64,000 bases of DNA, taken from contig CAYPFW010000001.1 in NCBI GenBank assembly GCA_964410585.1, positions 68,781 through 132,780 of the forward strand. Reading direction: 5' to 3'. The stretch comes from an uncultured archaeon. Lineage in GTDB: Archaea; Aenigmatarchaeota; Aenigmatarchaeia; QMZP01; JACQNV01. The position numbers and the translations under genes were made by a program. The notes under the pieces are model-generated. The model worked only from the letters and a program-made list of their open reading frames with translations, was not told the origin of the DNA and made no database searches. This document shows, in pieces, positions 37,245 to 61,928 of this stretch; position 1 is the stretch's first letter, and each line of letters starts with the position of its first letter.

Positions 37245-37323
37245 GGAAGCCGTAATTTTTTCGAGCTTGCAGGCGAAGAAAAAATAGGCTCCGTTTTTGA
37301 TTAACCTTTTGGACTAAAAGGTT
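37245..37323 (+). promoter_or_regulatory. conserved leader element, copy A (upstream of spt4)
   Basis: GGAAGCCGTAATTTTTTCGAGC...GCGAAGAAAAAATAGGCTCCGTTTTTGATTAACCTTTTGGACTAAAAGGTT then ATG; carries compensatory changes relative to copies B-E. Confidence 0.6.
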
Positions 37324-37591: not shown

Positions 37592-37673
37592 GGAAGGCGT
37601 TTAAAATTTTTTCGAACAGCAGTGAGAAAAAATTTAGCCTCCTGTTTTGGTTAAGCTTTTAGGATAAAAGGTT
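37592..37673 (+). promoter_or_regulatory. conserved leader element, copy B (upstream of rps24e)
   Basis: GGAAGGCGTTTAAAATTTTTTCGAAC...AGAAAAAATTTAGCCTCCTGTTTTGGTTAAGCTTTTAGGATAAAAGGTT then ATG. Confidence 0.6.
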
Positions 37674-38663: not shown

Positions 38664-38745
38664 GGAAGGCGTAAAAATTTTCGAGTTGAGACGAAGAAAA
38701 TTTTAGCCTCCTTTTTGGATTAACCCTTTTCTCAAAAAGGGTTAT
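38664..38745 (+). promoter_or_regulatory. conserved leader element, copy C (upstream of the tRNA 3' segment)
   Basis: GGAAGGCGTAAAAATTTTCGAG...GAAGAAAATTTTAGCCTCCTTTTTGGATTAACCCTTTTCTCAAAAAGGGTTAT. Confidence 0.55.
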
Positions 38746-38800: not shown

Positions 38801-38840
38801 TCTTTCTTTAGAAAAGAAAGAGCACCGTCCAGAAAGAAAC
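38801..38840 (+). terminator. conserved 3' hairpin element, copy 3 (after tRNA 3' end)
   Basis: CTCTTTCTTT-aga-AAAGAAAGAG then CACCGTCCAGAAAGAAAC. Confidence 0.4.
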
Positions 38841-49716: not shown

Positions 49717-49798
49717 GGAAGGCGTAAAATTTTTCCGAGCAACAGCGAAGAAAAATTTAGCCTCCTGTTTTGCTTAAGCTTTTGGGACAAAAGCTTAT
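49717..49798 (+). promoter_or_regulatory. conserved leader element, copy D (upstream of rpl14)
   Basis: GGAAGGCGTAAAATTTTTCCGAGC...GCGAAGAAAAATTTAGCCTCCTGTTTTGCTTAAGCTTTTGGGACAAAAGCTTAT then ATG. Confidence 0.6.
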
Positions 49799-52083: not shown

Positions 52084-52161
52084 GGAAGGCGTAATTTTTT
52101 GCAAGCAACAGCGAAGCAAAAAATAGCCTCCGTTTTTGCTTAAGCTTTTGACTAAAAGCTT
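52084..52161 (+). promoter_or_regulatory. conserved leader element, copy E (upstream of rps14)
   Basis: GGAAGGCGTAATTTTTTGCAAGC...GCGAAGCAAAAAATAGCCTCCGTTTTTGCTTAAGCTTTTGACTAAAAGCTT then ATG. Confidence 0.6.
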
Positions 52162-53664: not shown

Positions 53665-56172
53665 ATGGTATTTATAGGTTCTGATAGAGATGTTGACCTA
53701 TACATGCGAGAGGCAAGATCAATACCTCTTCTAACAAAAGAACAGGAGTACAATTTAGCTTGTGTATATAGAGGCGTTGGACCTCTTATAGGATCTAGCA
53801 TTTACCAAAACAAAAATCATCCATTCAGTACCTATAGAAATGGAAAAGCTTATTCTGAAATGTCACCTACAGAAGCAGCTGATTTGATGAGTAGGGGAAA
53901 TAGAAGACTTGTTATTAGTATAGCAAAAAGATATAGAAACCGAGGTTTGGATTTCCTCGATCTTCTTGCAGAAGGTGAAGTTGGCCTTGTTAAAGCTGTG
54001 CAAAAATACGAGCCTCAAAAAGGATTCAAGTTTTCAACATATGCAACTTGGTGGATAAAACAATCGGTAAAAAGAGCACTTGAAAAAACGCGGCAAATTC
54101 ATATACCGATTCATATTTTTGAAATTCTTCCACGTTTTAATGAAGTATATAGAACTCTCCAAAGCGAGTTACAGAGGCCTCCTAGCACAGAAGAGATTGC
54201 ACAAAAAATGGGCTTGAAACCCTCCCAGGTTATTTTGATACAGGATGCAAAGGTAACCAAATCTAGAAAACTTTTAAGTCTAGATAGAATGAAGGGCGAT
54301 GATGAAGATGAAAGCATGTATAAAAGTATAGAGGACAGAACAGCAGATAGACCAGATGATCAAATGAGTCAATTAGACTCGGCAGTTCTGCTCAATACAC
54401 TAATGGACCGCCTAACAGTAAGAGAAAGATATGTTATAGAAAGCCGAAAAGGATTGAACGGAAAAAGTCAAAAAACACTTGAGGAACTTGGATTGGAATT
54501 AGATGTGACAAGGGAAAGAGTAAGACAAATAGAAATCAAGTCAATGGAGAAGCTTAAACAGGCAGCTAAAAGTATTCGTGCTACTAGTGTCATCAAAAGT
54601 AATATTGAAAGCGATAAACAGGTAGCTCAACAAAGCAAAAGACTGAATCGCCCAAATTATCCAGCAGAGAGAACAGAAGTATCTGATTCAAGCTCCTATT
54701 CTGTCTCAGAAATACATGGAATGTGGGGATTTGGATCACATAGTGCAACATCAAGACACATAAGATTAAGCGCTGCAAGAAAGGTGGGTTGGGGAAGATA
54801 CTCAAAAGAAGACATAGATAAGTACACTGCAAGCTTTGGTCTTTTTGGTGAAGAACCGGTTATTAAACAGCAATCTATTTTAGATGAAACAATACCAGTT
54901 GAAGAAAGGGATTGGCTTACATTTGCTGAAATAAAAGAACTGTTTGGCTATCCAAACGCAGAGTCAAACTACAGACACATAAGATTGAGTGGCTCAAGAA
55001 AAGTAGATCACGACAAATACACAAAAGCAGAAATCCTTGCGTACATAGATTGGCACATGAAAGACCTTCTAAATATGCCATTGAAACACGCTGAAACAAT
55101 GACAGATGTGAGACAAGGAATAACTATAGATGAAGTACTTTCTGACCCTCAAATAGCTGATCTTTCTTTTAAAGATATTAGGAAAATTTCAGGGAAATCT
55201 GAAGCAGCTGTATACAATGCAATTAAAGCCAATAATATCCAAAATACAGCAAGAGGCAGATATCCAAAAGAAATTCTTGCAACAATAAGAGAGAGAGATG
55301 AAAGAAGAGTGAAAACCCACACACTACATGACGGCACAAATCACAAAGCAAGAATAGTTTTCGAAAACACAGAAACAGATGACACAACTCCACATGAAAG
55401 AGCAAAAGTGAATAGAAGATCTTATTCTGCGTCAGACGTTTCTAATCTTTTAGATATATCAGTACATGAAGTTCGCCCATTTTCTGTCGCTGTAGGCATA
55501 TCAATATCTGGGCACAGCAAATATTCTAAAAAAGATGTAGATGAATACCTAGCCAAAAGGGAAGAAATACTTGCAATCCCAATGAGAGAAAGAGATGTTT
55601 TGGATATATCTGAAATTTGTGATATGTTTGGTTTTGATACATGGCGATCCACACAAAACCACCTTTATGCAAGCAGGTCTCAGAGGCTCGGAGTTGGCTT
55701 GTTTTCCAAAAGAGAAATTTTAGAATATATAGACATGCACATGCAAGACCTTTTGAACATGCCATTTGTAAAAGCAATGTCACCGGAGACAAAAACTCCT
55801 GAAACGGTTCAACAAATAGAAAGGAAACCTTACAAAAGCCCAGGAATAGAATTAGAATTTAATCCAGGAGAAAATGTACTTCTTCCTAGTTCTGTTAGAG
55901 AATTAACTGGGAGAGATCCTAGCCAACTTCTTAAATATTTGAGATCCCGTGGATTAAGATCAAGAGAATTTAGAATAGGTTGTGTTGCTGAATATTTGGA
56001 TTATATGAGAAAGAAAAAAGAAGTAAAGGAAGAAGCCAAAGACAAATTTTATGGCGGACTTAAAGAGCTTGTCCAAAGGGAAGGCAGAAGACCAGAAAGG
56101 AAGCTTGTAATAAATGTGCAAATAAAAGTTCAGGACATTCACCAAAATTCTGTTGTCGAAGAAGCAGTCTAA
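53665..56172 (+). CDS. sigma-70-family sigma factor domain fused to six tandem HTH-like repeats (835 aa)
   Basis: Region 1.2 [18 protein letters not shown]; region 2 [53 protein letters not shown]; region 4.2 [28 protein letters not shown]; then repeats such as [43 protein letters not shown]. Confidence 0.8.
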
Positions 56173-56588
56173 ATATCCAAAATAACCCTAGCAAACCATC
56201 CTGTTTTTGTTTTTTTCACTTCAAATCGATGCAGAGTGACAGCTTTTACATCAACTTTAAGTTCGTGTTTTTTTGGATCTATTTTTTCCCCTTCCAAAAC
56301 AGCTTTTAGTCTGTTTGGCTTTCCTTCAGAAATAGAAACTTTGATTTTTGAAAACAGAAGTAATTCAGCGTCTTTCAAAAAAATCAACTCTTGGAGAAAA
56401 TCAAAAAACAGCATTTCTATATTGTCTTTTTCCAAAACAATTTCCTTTTTCACTTTTGTTTTTATCCCCTTCAAATCAACTTGCGTCTCTTCTGTAGCCA
56501 GTCCTGCTGCTTCAAAAAGTTCATCTAAACTTTTCCCCTTTGCTTCAAACAAAACATCTGCTGTGTGGTCGAAAAACTTATAACCCAT
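56169..56588 (-). CDS. archease
   Basis: [29 protein letters not shown] archease N-terminal signature. Confidence 0.8.
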
Positions 56589-56619: not shown

Positions 56620-57423
56620 ATGAGAAGAGGAATACGGCTTAGGGCCTATTTGATGCTGACAGGAGAATTCAAAAAATCTTTTGATGTGATTAGGCTAGTA
56701 GAGTCTGGAAAAATTTTGGTTAATGGAAAGATTGTCACAAACCCAGAATTCCACATAAACAAAAAAGATTTAATCGAGATGAAAGACGGTCAAGGTTTGA
56801 AAACATTTAAAACAAAATCTTTTGTTTACCTTATTTTGAACAAGCCTACAGGATATGTATCCCAAAAACTACCCCTTTCTTTAGAAAAGAAAGGTGTAAG
56901 GTATCCCAAAGAAACTAATATAGAAAATAATAATGAAAAGTCTGTGTACGAATTGATCTACAAAATACCTGAGCTAGATATTGAGACAAAAAAAACTTTA
57001 TTTGCTGTTGGTCGTTTAGACAAAGACACAGAAGGCCTGCTAATTTTCACAAATGATGGAAAATTATCCAATGAATTGATGAGGCCAGAAAAACACATAC
57101 AAAAAACTTATTTTGTTGAAACCCAAAAATCAATTTCTGAATTAGATTTGAAAAAATTGGAGTCTGGAGTAAAAATAAGAACAGAAGAAGGAGAAGCTTT
57201 TGTCAAGGCAGTCAAAACACAAAAATTTTCAGATAGAACAGCTGAATTGATTATAGACGAGGGAAAGAAAAGACAAGTGAAGCTCATGTTTTTGTCGATT
57301 GGAAACAATGTTGTTCGTTTGAAAAGAGTTGGTATTGGAAAACTAAGAATAGAAAACCTAGATTTCAAAGGAAAAAATTATTTGATAACCAACAAACAGG
57401 AGTTGGAAAAATTACTATTCTAG
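56620..57423 (+). CDS. RsuA/RluB-family pseudouridine synthase with S4 domain
   Basis: Catalytic motif GRLDKDTEGLLIFTNDG; S4-like N-terminus. Confidence 0.8.
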   Translation: MRRGIRLRAYLMLTGEFKKSFDVIRLVESGKILVNGKIVTNPEFHINKKDLIEMKDGQGLKTFKTKSFVYLILNKPTGYVSQKLPLSLEKKGVRYPKETNIENNNEKSVYELIYKIPELDIETKKTLFAVGRLDKDTEGLLIFTNDGKLSNELMRPEKHIQKTYFVETQKSISELDLKKLESGVKIRTEEGEAFVKAVKTQKFSDRTAELIIDEGKKRQVKLMFLSIGNNVVRLKRVGIGKLRIENLDFKGKNYLITNKQELEKLLF

Positions 57424-58275
57424 CTTTATTTTGTTTTTTATTCTATCTATTCCTTCCCCAATAAAAACCAATTTTTTATCTCCTTGCTTTTCTTCTAGAT
57501 CCCATCTACCAGCAACAAAATTTATCAGTGTGGATTTCCCATCTAAATTTACAAACCCTTTCAATCTGTACACTTCTTTTGGGATGTTTTTGAGGAAGCT
57601 TTCCAATTCGATTTTGGTAAACCTCTTTTTTGATTCTAAAACAAAACTTTCCATTTTGGTGTGTTCTGATTTTTTGTGCAATTTCCTTTCTCTATGTTCA
57701 ACTTCTAAAGAAAACAACAAGTCAACATCAACCTCACAGTGTTTTGTTTTGAAAACATGTGCACGCGGGTTTAGGTTTTTTATTTTGTTTTCAATATTTT
57801 TTATCTGATCCGCTTTTACCAAATCAATCTTGTTCAGTAAAACAACATCTGCAACTTCTATCTGTGCTTCACCAACTTTCCCTATGTTAGGGAACCGAAC
57901 AAAAGAATCTGCATCTACGACGATTACCACAGTATCCAGCTTTACCTCCTTCAAATTTTCTTCGACATCAAAAACAATTGCATCTGGTTCAGCCACTCCA
58001 GTTGTTTCAACAATAATTATTTCAGGTGAATATTTTTGTATGATCTCTTTTATTGCAAATTCAAATTCTCCTGTAAGAGAACAGCATACACAACCGCCGG
58101 AAAGTTCTTGTATATCCACATTTTTTCCTTTGATGATTTGTGTATCTATAGAAACTTCCCCAAACTCGTTCATCAAAATAGCAAATTTTCTGTCTAAATT
58201 TTCAATTACTCTTTTGAGTAGAGTTGTCTTCCCTGCTCCCAAATATCCAGAAATTATTGTTATTGGAGTTTTCAT
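57415..58275 (-). CDS. COG0523 (CobW/ZigA-like) metallochaperone GTPase
   Basis: Walker A GYLGAGKTTLL, GGCVCCS metal motif, NKIDL; start set to MKTPIT (ORF-track frame -27). Confidence 0.8.
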   Translation of the reverse strand: MKTPITIISGYLGAGKTTLLKRVIENLDRKFAILMNEFGEVSIDTQIIKGKNVDIQELSGGCVCCSLTGEFEFAIKEIIQKYSPEIIIVETTGVAEPDAIVFDVEENLKEVKLDTVVIVVDADSFVRFPNIGKVGEAQIEVADVVLLNKIDLVKADQIKNIENKIKNLNPRAHVFKTKHCEVDVDLLFSLEVEHRERKLHKKSEHTKMESFVLESKKRFTKIELESFLKNIPKEVYRLKGFVNLDGKSTLINFVAGRWDLEEKQGDKKLVFIGEGIDRIKNKIKLE

Positions 58276-58341
58276 ATTAGTATATATGACAAATAGAAAC
58301 ATAAGGAAATAGTCTCTTCTTCTTGTGATCTATTAAAAGTT

Positions 58342-59271
58342 TCATACTTTCCTCCCAACAATCAGATGATGTGGAGCATATGGGCCCTCGTCGCCATCTG
58401 TATATCTCCAAAGTTCTGTTTTAAATCCTCTTTCCTCTAAAAACAAACATCTATCCAAACAAATCAATTGTTTAGCAACAATAGAAACAATCATATTGTG
58501 TTCATCTCGGTGTGTTTCTGGAACAAATCTGTCTCCTTCTTTCCTTCTTGTGTGTGGAGCATTTATCAATTTATGTAAAAGTTGAGTGTCAATACCAAAC
58601 TTTTTGGCATAGTCAGATAGTGGAAATTTGTATGGGTATCTTCTTCCATTTTTTCCGGCTTCTAAATCTTTTCCACTTCTATCCACTAATTCTGGAAGGT
58701 TTATTGGTGTGCTCAAAACAATATCAACACCTGTCGCAGCTGCCTGTTGAACCAAATCTGCTCCAACAATGCCAGGAGATCTAAATCCAGTTAGAATCCG
58801 TTGTCCACCATTGTAGTGTGCACTAAGCGGATATCTTGGTTCAAATCTTGCTTCCTCTAATCTTAGATTTCCAACTGCTGCGTGGAGATCTTTCAAATAT
58901 CTTAGAACTTCTTCCCTTGTTCTGAATGTTCTGTATCCCAAATTTGCATCATTGTTAAAATTTTCAGGGGAAAAGGAAACATCTATACCAACAACTGCTA
59001 TTTTTGGTTTTTCTCTTGCAAAATCCGCTGTGAATCTTATGCCTGAATGGCAACCAACATCGACAAGTACTGTGCTTGGCTCGTCTCTTATTTCAGGTGA
59101 AAACCTATCAACAACATATTCTCTGTCTAAGACCCCTTCTGGTTCTAAACCATCTGTTCTAGGAAGACTTCTTTCTTGATATCCAAAATCTTCTCTATAG
59201 CTTCCTGTTCTGAGACCTCCAAACCTGTCTAAAAAGTGTACAGTATAAAAAAACCTTTCTCTAGTGTTCAT
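58342..59271 (-). CDS. hypothetical protein, possibly methyltransferase-fold
   Basis: VLVDVGCHSGIRF weakly resembles SAM-binding motif I; Arg/Gly-richer composition. Confidence 0.45.
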   Translation of the reverse strand: MNTRERFFYTVHFLDRFGGLRTGSYREDFGYQERSLPRTDGLEPEGVLDREYVVDRFSPEIRDEPSTVLVDVGCHSGIRFTADFAREKPKIAVVGIDVSFSPENFNNDANLGYRTFRTREEVLRYLKDLHAAVGNLRLEEARFEPRYPLSAHYNGGQRILTGFRSPGIVGADLVQQAAATGVDIVLSTPINLPELVDRSGKDLEAGKNGRRYPYKFPLSDYAKKFGIDTQLLHKLINAPHTRRKEGDRFVPETHRDEHNMIVSIVAKQLICLDRCLFLEERGFKTELWRYTDGDEGPYAPHHLIVGRKV

Positions 59272-59364: not shown

Positions 59365-60339
59365 TTAACCCTTAACATTCCCAACGGGAACCAACTTGAC
59401 AACTTTTTGAGAAATATCTTCATCAAGTCTATTTTTCTTTGATTCTATATATTTATCGAGAGCTACCTTTTTGATAAACCAGTTCCTTCCTATCTTGTGT
59501 GCTTCTATTTTTCCCTTTCTTGCAAGCAGGCTAAGATATTCTTGTGAATATGGTGTGCCTTTTGATGCTTGCTCCAGGCTTATAAATTCCGGTCCCTTTT
59601 TGAAAGCATCCAAATAAAAGTCTAGGCTTCTTTCCACATTGCGAGCAATAAAATTTGCAAATGGTTTAATGTCTCCTGAATCTGCTTTTCTAAGTTTGTC
59701 ATAGTATTTATTCCTATCAACTTTTAGTACCATCGTTATTGGATATCCATGTTTCATCAAAAAGAGGTTCATGATCAATCTTGATGTTCTCCCATTACCA
59801 TCTGTGAATGGGTGTATTTCAACTAGTTTATAGTGTATAATTGCCGCGAGTTCTATAACATTCAAATTTTCTGGGTTGTTAGAGACATATTCTATAAACT
59901 CTTTCATTTTGTCAGGGACTTTTTCAAACCTTGGCGGACTTTTTACAGCTCCCAAAATTCTTACATTTACATCTCTGTATCTGCCTGCATATTCATCATC
60001 AATACCTGTCAAAATTATCTTGTGAACTCCCTTTATTGTATCCTCTGTTATTTGAGATGTTTTGTTTACAATGTCTTCCAAAAATTCAAAAGCTTTTTGG
60101 TGGTTTATAGCCTCAAAGTGTTCCCTTAAAGGTTTTCCTTTTATTGTAATGCCTTCCTCTATAACAAGTTTTGTTTCTCTTAATGTAAGCGTGTTGCCCT
60201 CTATAGCATTTGAATTGTATGCCAATTCTATTGCAAACTGTTTTCTCAAATTCTCCAATGCAGATTTCGGCAATGGTCTTAGCGCGTCCAATTCCTTCTT
60301 CTTTTTAACTATTCTTTGGTATAATTCTTGATCTATCAT
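59365..60339 (-). CDS. fic: Fic/DOC-family protein with C-terminal winged-helix domain
   Basis: Fic motif HPFTDGNGRTSR; last 16 codons copy the rtcB C-terminus. Confidence 0.8.
   Translation of the reverse strand: MIDQELYQRIVKKKKELDALRPLPKSALENLRKQFAIELAYNSNAIEGNTLTLRETKLVIEEGITIKGKPLREHFEAINHQKAFEFLEDIVNKTSQITEDTIKGVHKIILTGIDDEYAGRYRDVNVRILGAVKSPPRFEKVPDKMKEFIEYVSNNPENLNVIELAAIIHYKLVEIHPFTDGNGRTSRLIMNLFLMKHGYPITMVLKVDRNKYYDKLRKADSGDIKPFANFIARNVERSLDFYLDAFKKGPEFISLEQASKGTPYSQEYLSLLARKGKIEAHKIGRNWFIKKVALDKYIESKKNRLDEDISQKVVKLVPVGNVKG
59368..59415. repeat. 48-bp direct repeat, copy 1 (3' end of fic)
   Basis: ACCCTTAACATTCCCAACGGGAACCAACTTGACAACTTTTTGAGAAAT; 45/48 identical to copy 2. Confidence 0.85.
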
Positions 60340-60443
60340 ATCTATATATTGTATCGGATATCTTATAAATCTATCTATCCGATATATTAGAATACAGTAT
60401 CGGATGCAACTGATTTTAATCTATCCGATATTGGAAGAAACAG

Positions 60444-61928
60444 CTAACCCTTAACATTCCCAATTGGAACCAACTTGACAACTTTCTGAGAAATGCCAGC
60501 GTTGTGTGCTGATTCGATGACTTCGTCAATATCCTTGTACGCGCCACCAGCTTCTTCAGCTAAACCAGAGAACGAAACCGTTTTAACTAGAATTCCTCTC
60601 TTCTCCATATCTTTTTGTAGTTGCTCGCCTCTCCACTGCCTTTTCGCTGCGTTTCTTGACATTGTCCTTCCAGAACCGTGGCATGTTGATCCAAAAGTCT
60701 CTTCTTCTGCTTTTTTTGTGCCGACCAAGAGATATGAGCCAGTTTCCATTGAGCCACCGATGATCACAGGTTGTCCATCATCCCTGTAAATTTTAGGAAC
60801 CTCCTCCCTTCCAGGACCAAGGCTTCTGGTTGCGCCTTTTCTATGTACGATGACTTTTTTCTTTTTTCCATCAACTACATATTCTTCAATTTTAGCGGTA
60901 TTGTGCGCCACATCATACACTTGTTTCATTCCTAAACTTTCCGGTGACTGTTTGAAAACATCTGAGAATACCTCTCTGATTCTGTGCAAAATAACTTGCC
61001 TATTTGCAAAGCTCATGTTTATTCCAGTTTGCATTGCTTTGAAATAATCTTGTCCTTCAGGTGATTGGAAAGGAGCACAAGCAAGCTCCCTGTCCAAAAT
61101 TTTTATTTTGTATTTAGATTCCATCACAGACAAAAATTTGGTCAAATAATCTGTTGCAACTTGGTGGCCATATCCTCTTGAACCACAATGGAACATCAAA
61201 ACAATTTGATCTGGGAAAATCCCCCATTTTTTTGCAAGTTCTTTGTTGATTATGTTTTCTGGCAGAACTCTTTGGATTTCTAAATAGTGGTTTCCAGAAC
61301 CTAAAGTTCCTATCTGATCTTTACCTCTTTGGATAGCTTTGTCAGAAACTTTGGAAACATCTGCTGCTTTCATCCTTCCATTTTCTTCTGTCCTTTCCAA
61401 ATCCTCTTCCCAACCATATCCTTGCTTCACACACCACTCTGCACCAAGTTCAACAACTTCTTTGAATTGTTGTGCATTTAGTTTCACAAAACCAGAAGAT
61501 CCAACACCTGCAGGAACTCTATCGTATAGTTTATTTACTAAGTTTCTTAGTTGAGGTTGGACATCTTTGAAAGTGAGATTTGTCAACACAAGACGCATGC
61601 CGCAGTTAATATCAAACCCTATTCCACCTGGAGAAATCACACCTTCTTCTAAATCAAACGCAGCGACACCGCCAATCGGAAAACCGTATCCCCAGTGTCC
61701 ATCTGGCATACAGTATGCAAATTTCTGAATTCCGGGCAAGTTTGCGACATTGGTTATTTGGTCGTAGACTCCTGGGTCCATTTCGTTGACCAATTTCTTT
61801 GACGCGACAATTCTTGCCGGCACATTCATGCCAGTTTTGTGGGTTTTAGGGATTTCCCAGATGTATGGTGTGATCTGCTTGATTTCTTTTGGCTTCTCTA
61901 TTCTGATCTGAGATCCTTCTTCGTTCAT
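60444..61928 (-). CDS. rtcB: tRNA-splicing ligase RtcB
   Basis: GGSMETGSYLLVGT and GSTCHGSGR motifs, 494 aa, C-terminus KLVPIGNVKG. Confidence 0.9.
   Translation of the reverse strand: MNEEGSQIRIEKPKEIKQITPYIWEIPKTHKTGMNVPARIVASKKLVNEMDPGVYDQITNVANLPGIQKFAYCMPDGHWGYGFPIGGVAAFDLEEGVISPGGIGFDINCGMRLVLTNLTFKDVQPQLRNLVNKLYDRVPAGVGSSGFVKLNAQQFKEVVELGAEWCVKQGYGWEEDLERTEENGRMKAADVSKVSDKAIQRGKDQIGTLGSGNHYLEIQRVLPENIINKELAKKWGIFPDQIVLMFHCGSRGYGHQVATDYLTKFLSVMESKYKIKILDRELACAPFQSPEGQDYFKAMQTGINMSFANRQVILHRIREVFSDVFKQSPESLGMKQVYDVAHNTAKIEEYVVDGKKKKVIVHRKGATRSLGPGREEVPKIYRDDGQPVIIGGSMETGSYLLVGTKKAEEETFGSTCHGSGRTMSRNAAKRQWRGEQLQKDMEKRGILVKTVSFSGLAEEAGGAYKDIDEVIESAHNAGISQKVVKLVPIGNVKG
60447..60494. repeat. 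48-bp direct repeat, copy 2 (3' end of rtcB)
   Basis: ACCCTTAACATTCCCAATTGGAACCAACTTGACAACTTTCTGAGAAAT. Confidence 0.85.

Follow-up and report, generated by a model that had tools for sequence, protein, structure and literature searches.

A fic cassette between two copies of the rtcB 3′ end: an insertion scar in an uncultured Aenigmatarchaeota archaeon

The window analyzed here is a stretch of 64,000 nt from an uncultured Aenigmatarchaeota archaeon (GCA_964410585.1, contig CAYPFW010000001.1, positions 68,781-132,780), and the feature under study is a fic gene lying directly behind rtcB. Along the minus strand, rtcB is followed by 104 nt, fic, 93 nt, a 309-aa open reading frame (ORF), the gene of a cobW-like GTPase and the archease gene, the last two being separated by a plus-strand pseudouridine synthase gene. 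The fic gene and its promoter/operator region, and nothing else, occupy a 1,029-bp insert bracketed by two direct repeats, termed R1 (gene-proximal) and R2 (distal). The features of rtcB and the insert are as follows.

60444-61928, minus strand: rtcB, the target gene, 494 aa, ending in AGISQKVVKLVPIGNVKG before the stop; its last 16 codons and stop form R1
60445-60494, minus strand: R1, the gene-proximal (attL-like) repeat and functional rtcB tail; TAG stop at 60444-60446, with the cassette starting immediately after
60340-60443, minus strand: left part of the cassette, the promoter/operator region
59365-60339, minus strand: extended fic ORF, 324 aa, ending in DEDISQKVVKLVPVGNVKG before the stop
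59429-60339, minus strand: fic in its family-defined extent, a Fic core and a C-terminal helix-turn-helix (HTH), ending at the family TAG (59429-59431); homologues measure 300-311 aa
59432-59436, minus strand: A5 run with an inferred 1-nt deletion (AAG AGA/AAA TAG to AAA A-AT AGA)
59416-59428, minus strand: 13-nt spacer from the native fic stop to R2, which the extended ORF reads as part of the linker NRLDED
59365-59415, minus strand: R2, the displaced distal (attR-like) repeat; 16 rtcB-tail codons and a TAA, which ends the extended fic ORF

A repeat search of the window returned a single direct repeat of 50 nt (59366-59415 versus 60445-60494, starts 1,079 nt apart), identical at 47 of 50 positions (94%). 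No other repeat pair of this kind occurs in the window, where the remaining repeat families are short intergenic motifs. A 41-nt repeat pattern, with up to 3 mismatches allowed, finds only 2 sites in the 64 kb and matched none of 100 shuffles. Two of the three differences between the copies are synonymous (CAG/CAA and CCA/CCC), and the third (ATT/GTT) exchanges isoleucine and valine; rtcB moreover stops at TAG and the fic ORF at TAA. Both products consequently end in ISQKVVKLVP(I/V)GNVKG. The initial annotation had described 48-bp repeats with three differences, shared by the ends of two otherwise unrelated proteins; alignment of the copies extends the repeat to 50 nt, and similarity between R1 and R2 stops at the repeat edges on both sides. 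Its further proposal, that the shared ending is an RtcB C-terminus, agrees with the protein comparisons. The Pfam RtcB profile matches over positions 1-426 of 426 (E=8e-174) with an alignment that reaches the last residue of RtcB, and all 120 nearest RtcB homologues end like P[IVL]GN[VI]KG. Because the profile extends to the last residue and the homologues share the ending, the repeat is the native 3′ end of rtcB. Two independent Logan assemblies, ERR4904391 and ERR4904390, contain the identical arrangement over both junctions, the 324-aa product included.

Comparison with relatives places the insert in context. Neighborhoods of rtcB were compared at 80 loci in archaea and bacteria, and tail copies were surveyed at 78 other rtcB loci with a locatable tail. 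In the syntenic relatives RtcB is 87-94% identical to that of the window. At locus L124 (RtcB 87% identical), where fic is absent, rtcB is followed after 49 nt by a 312-aa orthologue of the 309-aa protein, then by cobW, archease and KH-L7Ae-S8; a single rtcB tail is present, ending in TAA, and the locus reads as the empty site. L123, the closest relative (RtcB 94% identical), carries two other cassettes of ∼1.1 kb at this place. Its rtcB tail ends in TAG and is followed by TrmB and a 122-aa gene. Next comes another copy of the rtcB tail, at least 85 nt long, which codes for an ending in EVIESAHNVGISSKVVKLVPIGNVKG with a TAG stop and precedes a nucleotidyltransferase (MNT) and a 144-aa gene; a third, decayed tail with TAA precedes the 312-aa gene and cobW. 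The 309-aa protein of the window is 58% identical to the 312-aa genes at the equivalent position in both relatives. The rtcB end in this lineage has thus taken at least three different cassettes of ∼1.0-1.2 kb, with a tail copy after each, and is a re-used insertion hot spot. Since the site takes other cassettes too at L123, the repeat is not specific to fic.

The stop codons follow the same order. TAG is found in the gene-proximal copies that abut cassette DNA (R1 of the window, the first and second copies of L123), and TAA in the most distal copies (R2 of the window, the third copy of L123) and at all empty sites (L124, L121, L119, L003), the last three of which have a single tail and other downstream genes. 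Duplication of the tail as a general feature of rtcB was considered and rejected, an extra copy being found at only 1 of the 78 surveyed loci (L123); no fic gene lies near rtcB at any of the 78. The scar of insertion or recombination that had been proposed at the rtcB 3′ end is therefore borne out by the empty site at L124 and by these 78 loci without fic. Together, the window and its relatives show the insertion hot spot of a tiny archaeal genome in a clean series of states: occupied, empty and differently occupied.

The same type of fic cassette was surveyed at 18 distinct loci, where it sits among unrelated housekeeping genes. Flanking repeats at these loci include the following.

Window: rtcB tail, flanking repeat of 50 nt
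L108: tail of the glutamate dehydrogenase gene (gdh), flanking repeat of 46 nt
L085/L118: gatB tail in three copies, bounding the fic cassette and a ParE/RHH/DUF2283 cassette, flanking repeat of 59 nt
L112: 3′ flank of a SET gene, flanking repeat of 51 nt
L096: tRNA-like 3′ remnant, flanking repeat of 49 nt
L099 and L083: 3′ end of an intron-containing tRNA, short repeats

At 5 of the 18 loci the repeat measures 46 nt or more (46-59 nt), and among mismatched flank pairs used as a control only 0.7% reach 30 nt. Flanking repeats of 15-24 nt at L089, L091 and L116 do not exceed chance and were not counted. Where the target is a protein gene, one boundary of the repeat is the stop codon of the target; at tRNA targets it is the tRNA end. 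Pooling the four coding repeat pairs gives a ratio of nonsynonymous to synonymous divergence (pN/pS) of 0.22, and synonymous changes account for 16 of the 27 differences (p=9e-5). Because the differences between copies are mostly synonymous, as between orthologous coding sequences, each copy behaved as a functional gene end in a genome of its own, and the pairs do not look like a gene end beside a duplicate in decay.

Several of these loci have features of their own. At L118 (3406-5450; also at L085), the gatB tail copies adjoin a convergent full-length gatB in an array with the same architecture as that of rtcB at L123. At L116/L117, the 3′ end of a convergent ATPase_2 gene recurs upstream of fic in inverted, not direct, orientation, and an additional TATCGGATA palindrome pair lies downstream of fic; this arrangement may reflect an inversion between tail copies. 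L111 (1562-5909), on a 358-kb Altiarchaeota contig, carries three consecutive Fic-domain genes, with an MNT/HepT pair further on.

The shared protein ending has its own origin. The best 120 Fic homologues, 65-85% identical and in several cases source-named Altiarchaeota or Aenigmarchaeota, were used for comparison; 119 of them end just past the HTH at 293-330 aa, typically in YIKSKK(K/R), and the KLVPxGNVKG ending occurs in none of the 119. In a codon-by-codon comparison of 15 cassettes, the family 3′ end reads TCA AAG AAG AGA TAG, and the window reads TCA AAG AAA AAT AGA CTT GAT GAA GAT before continuing into ATT TCT. Relative to the family, the A-run at 59432-59436 is one base short, and the family TAG (59429-59431) is retained out of frame. 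Translation then passes through the 13-nt spacer, enters R2 in the original rtcB frame and stops at the TAA of R2. The fic ORF is extended because the 1-nt deletion put the family TAG out of frame, so the 3′-end comparison shows a 22-residue accidental extension and not a shared domain; the 324-aa Fic of the window is a 302-304-aa family member with an RtcB-derived extension. The initial annotation had proposed that fic captured the terminal codons of rtcB. The repeat scar underlying that proposal holds; insertion alone would have produced no fusion, and the additional 1-nt deletion was needed. Fic homologues with the same tail in unlinked places, which would have pointed to a shared domain, are absent from the comparison set.

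The arrangement is best explained, with a probability of roughly 0.65, if R1 and R2 are the attL/attR-like junctions of a recombinase-less cassette of ∼1.03 kb, integrated in the Campbell manner at a re-used attachment site by a catalyst acting in trans. A small circular or looped-out cassette would have carried its own copy of the rtcB tail, and reciprocal recombination between this tail and the chromosomal one would have rebuilt a complete rtcB with TAG beside the cassette DNA, displacing the other tail, with the ancestral TAA, to the far side. This is consistent with a full-length, restored rtcB and with direct repeats on both sides of the insert that include the end of the target gene. As catalyst, a tyrosine-type integrase encoded elsewhere is the likeliest candidate, although its chance overall falls short of even; host homologous recombination acting on the conserved tail is a weaker candidate. 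The 1-nt deletion in the A5 run came later and lets Fic read through the spacer into R2. The predicted empty-site junction is AACGCTGGC, a single tail and TAATTATATACC, and the predicted circle junction is GATGAAGAT, a single tail and TAGCTGTTTCTTCC. The crossover point cannot be placed from the three differences between R1 and R2, which are too few and form a mosaic with respect to L123 and L124.

Several observations weigh against trans-catalyzed integration. The enzyme is assumed and was not seen. The initial annotation had suggested a search for an integrase nearby, and this search came back empty: integrase or transposase Pfam domains were found neither in the cassette nor in the ∼45 ORFs of the window. 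No recombinase recurs among the 78 genes flanking the 18 fic cassettes; a pooled scan shows nothing there but housekeeping genes and toxin-antitoxin genes of the PIN or nucleotidyltransferase type. The presence of one cassette family at many unrelated targets is awkward for a sequence-specific integrase, and the repeat length ranges from ∼17 to at least 85 nt. At L107, the closest Fic (85% identical) also lies behind an rtcB, but ∼50 nt past its stop, and the available 350 nt show no repeat downstream. The differences in the window pair alone (two synonymous, one conservative) are not significant, and R1 resembles R2 far more than either copy resembles the tail of any relative, so that a purely local duplication keeps some probability at this locus. 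That the cassette is mobile at all is something we infer from the sequence comparisons.

A rival origin would be transposition-like: staggered cuts ∼50 nt apart in the rtcB tail, ligation of the cassette and gap repair would have produced a target-site duplication, with the three differences arising later. The near-identity of R1 and R2 would fit, as would repeats close to 50 nt at several loci (46, 49, 50, 51 and 59). Neither a transposase nor terminal inverted repeats are present, and we know of no transposition system that makes target duplications of ∼50 bp. Transposition is further disfavored because repeat lengths vary over the wide range given above, because one boundary always lies at the gene end, where randomly staggered cuts would not be expected to place it, because the proximal stop (TAG) differs from the ancestral one, and because copies elsewhere differ mostly synonymously; we consider this origin improbable. 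It is also unlikely, if not quite to that degree, that the duplication was independent of the arrival of fic, which would already have stood behind rtcB when the tail was copied to the far side of fic, through templated repair of a break or through exchange with an older cassette in an array. L107, with rtcB followed by fic and no visible repeat, would fit this order, although its contig is short and a distal repeat could lie beyond it. The tail copies at L123 exist with other cassettes, so that fic could have replaced an older one, and R2 belongs to the same lineage as R1. Against this stands the structure of tail, fic cassette and tail at no fewer than four unrelated targets, which ties the repeats to insertion.

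Two further explanations concern the fusion and the assembly themselves. The RtcB-like C-terminus could have been kept by selection for a function in Fic, such as mimicry of RtcB, targeting or the binding of a partner, and the ORF is indeed intact through the tail in three assemblies, with a conservative substitution as its sole amino-acid change. This is very improbable given that 119 of 120 homologues lack the tail and end right after the HTH, that the family TAG persists out of frame behind a 1-nt deletion, and that the tail occurs in this genome alone and is itself one of the two DNA repeats at the edges of the insert. An artefact of assembly is hardly credible, whether as a chimeric join or as a repeat collapsed in this metagenome-assembled genome. 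The source is uncultured, and repeats do mislead assemblers; this repeat, however, is just 50 nt long with copies that differ at three positions, the two further assemblies come from different runs and span both junctions identically, and relatives show a like structure.

Integration at an attachment site, the reading favored here, has close parallels among archaeal integrated elements. Their att repeats measure 29-69 bp (median 45), often lie in the 3′-distal part of a protein gene for which the element supplies a new stop, and through re-use of the site give rise to arrays (PMC6563490). Integration by archaeal tyrosine recombinases in tRNA genes or the 3′ parts of protein genes has likewise been described (She et al. 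2002, via PMC6563490; PMC8371274). The likeness lies in direct repeats of ∼45-60 bp at a conserved gene end, a gene rebuilt with a new stop and its original end displaced, an empty site in a relative and tandem arrays by re-use of the site. The unit in the window differs in its ∼1-kb size and single gene, in having no integrase inside or nearby, and in that one cargo is associated with many 'att' sequences. Elements without a recombinase that are mobilized in trans are known in bacteria as integrative mobile elements exploiting Xer (IMEX; CTX-phi/TLC at dif) and cis-mobilizable elements (CIMEs). They share with the window a small unit, site repeats at its edges, the lack of a recombinase of their own and tandem accretion, but use a fixed site (dif or the att site of a helper) and a known recombinase, whereas the tails of various housekeeping genes are used here. 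Integron cassettes are similar as ∼1-kb, single-function units (Fic, toxin-antitoxin, regulators) arranged head to tail with a recurring repeat (L123, L118); here the repeat is the coding tail of a host gene and not an attC hairpin, there is no IntI or attI, and each cassette has its own promoter.

As an insertion scar the locus is ordinary in kind; what sets it apart is mainly that the inserted unit lacks a recombinase. The wider pattern is that of a recombinase-less single-gene cassette behind conserved genes with duplicated ends, sometimes arrayed with other ∼1-kb cassettes. The literature search returned no specific description of such a Fic cassette, and its vehicle did not emerge from sequence collections: viral contigs of IMG/VR matched neither the operator pattern nor the Fic protein, and phage and plasmid records (tblastn) contained only relatives below 60% identity. 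The window contains no tRNA genes. A more far-reaching proposal, which we regard as tentative, is that DPANN and Altiarchaeota-type archaea harbor an undescribed class of recombinase-less ∼1-kb cassettes (Fic and HTH, toxin-antitoxin, small regulators) for which the last ∼20-90 nt of a host gene or tRNA would be the sole attachment site. Such cassettes would move from lineage to lineage together with this tail, form integron-like arrays downstream of housekeeping genes and integrate by homologous recombination on the short tail or through an unrecognized recombinase. In that case, the excisionase-type HTH of Fic, predicted to bind beside the junction, might serve as a directionality or recruitment factor. 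If this were a true mode of mobility, it would explain the spread of Fic and toxin-antitoxin genes among streamlined archaea with few recognizable mobile elements and would offer short natural landing sites in conserved genes.

The cargo itself is a Fic protein with an added DNA-binding domain. The Pfam Fic domain spans residues 97-194 (E=3.2e-24, 86 bits versus a cut-off of 24), and an excisionase-type HTH (Pfam HTH_17, E=4e-7) spans residues 254-301. The Fic motif HPFTDGNGRTSR is present and fits HxFx(D/E)GNGRxxR, and an N-terminal inhibitory motif, S43-N-A-I-E47-G48, aligns with TVAIEGN of FICD (phmmer). Human FICD is the most similar protein to the Fic core in the PDB (E=1e-46, residues 2-245), and the PADLOC SoFic model matches residues 16-248 (E=7.7e-39); the NCBIfam SoFic equivalog reaches 44 bits against a cut-off of 550. 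The cargo is probably a class II AMP-transferase that inhibits itself and carries a DNA-binding tail. It shares the HPFTDGNGRTSR motif and the S-x-x-x-E-G inhibitory motif with the class II proteins human FICD/HYPE and SoFic, next to its matches to FICD and the PADLOC SoFic model. It differs from them in being archaeal, in carrying HTH_17 at the C-terminus in place of tetratricopeptide repeat (TPR) or winged-helix parts, in scoring below the NCBIfam SoFic cut-off and in its accidental 22-aa extension. No antitoxin gene accompanies it, fic being the only sense-strand ORF between R1 and R2, with the other ORFs antisense inside fic. Of the two roles suggested earlier for the cargo, toxin is doubtful given the built-in inhibitory motif and the lack of an antitoxin gene, and defence is possible, as the PADLOC SoFic match suggests. 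Nothing links Fic functionally to RtcB, and the mechanism needs no such link.

Upstream of fic, an archaeal TATA box (TTTATAA, minus strand, 60363-60369) lies between inverted TATCGGATA half-sites at 60352-60360 and 60376-60384, and a second pair lies at 60398-60406 (8/9 match) and 60422-60430. Exact TATCGGATA occurs three times in the 64 kb, always within 60352-60430, against an expectation of 0.11. The palindrome-TATA-palindrome arrangement is found ∼27 nt before the ATG in every fic homologue examined, often with a second pair further upstream. The HTH probably acts in autoregulation and represses its own promoter by occupying the TATCGGATA palindromes around the TATA box. The G+C content of the cassette (0.33-0.36) does not stand out from that of the neighborhood, and neither terminal inverted repeats nor terminators were found at its ends.

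Downstream of the insertion lies the rest of the interrupted operon.

58342-59271, minus strand: 309-aa host gene downstream of the insertion, which follows rtcB directly in relatives
57415-58302, minus strand: cobW-like GTPase (Pfam), rest of the interrupted operon
56620-57423, plus strand: pseudouridine synthase (Pfam), between cobW and archease
56169-56588, minus strand: archease (Pfam), rest of the interrupted operon

The 309-aa protein has no match in Pfam, NCBIfam or PADLOC; it contains a VLVDVGCHSG stretch reminiscent of an S-adenosylmethionine (SAM)-binding motif. The order of rtcB, a cobW/COG0523-like GTPase and archease recurs in ∼50 of the 80 rtcB loci, in archaea and bacteria, which suggests a metallochaperone partner for the ligase. 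The pseudouridine synthase gene between cobW and archease is present in the window and at L123 and absent at L124, and represents a further lineage-specific insertion into this operon. For annotation, the locus represents an rtcB-cobW-archease RNA-repair operon split by insertions.

Further features of the window concern other genes. An 835-aa ORF on the plus strand (53665-56172) contains bacterial sigma-70 regions (NCBIfam RpoD, E=4e-73). Its best homologues are RpoD proteins of Campylobacterota, 42-48% identical over approximately residues 60-310 only; its C-terminal ∼530 aa contain internal repeats and have no homologue among the top matches, and the ORF is absent at the syntenic position of L124. 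Genes for S4e, S24e, L7Ae, Rpb7 and an archaeal ProRS nevertheless mark the genome as clearly archaeal. A 58-nt intergenic element (AAATTTTTCCGAGC, GCGAAGAAAAATTTAGCCTCC and GCTTAAGCTTTTG in succession) with an internal hairpin is present in five copies in and around the ribosomal-protein cluster.

37254-37311, 37604-37661, 38673-38730, 49727-49784 and 52093-52150: copies of the 58-nt element

A second intergenic repeat family, of 56 nt, occurs at 38806, 44114 and 49210.

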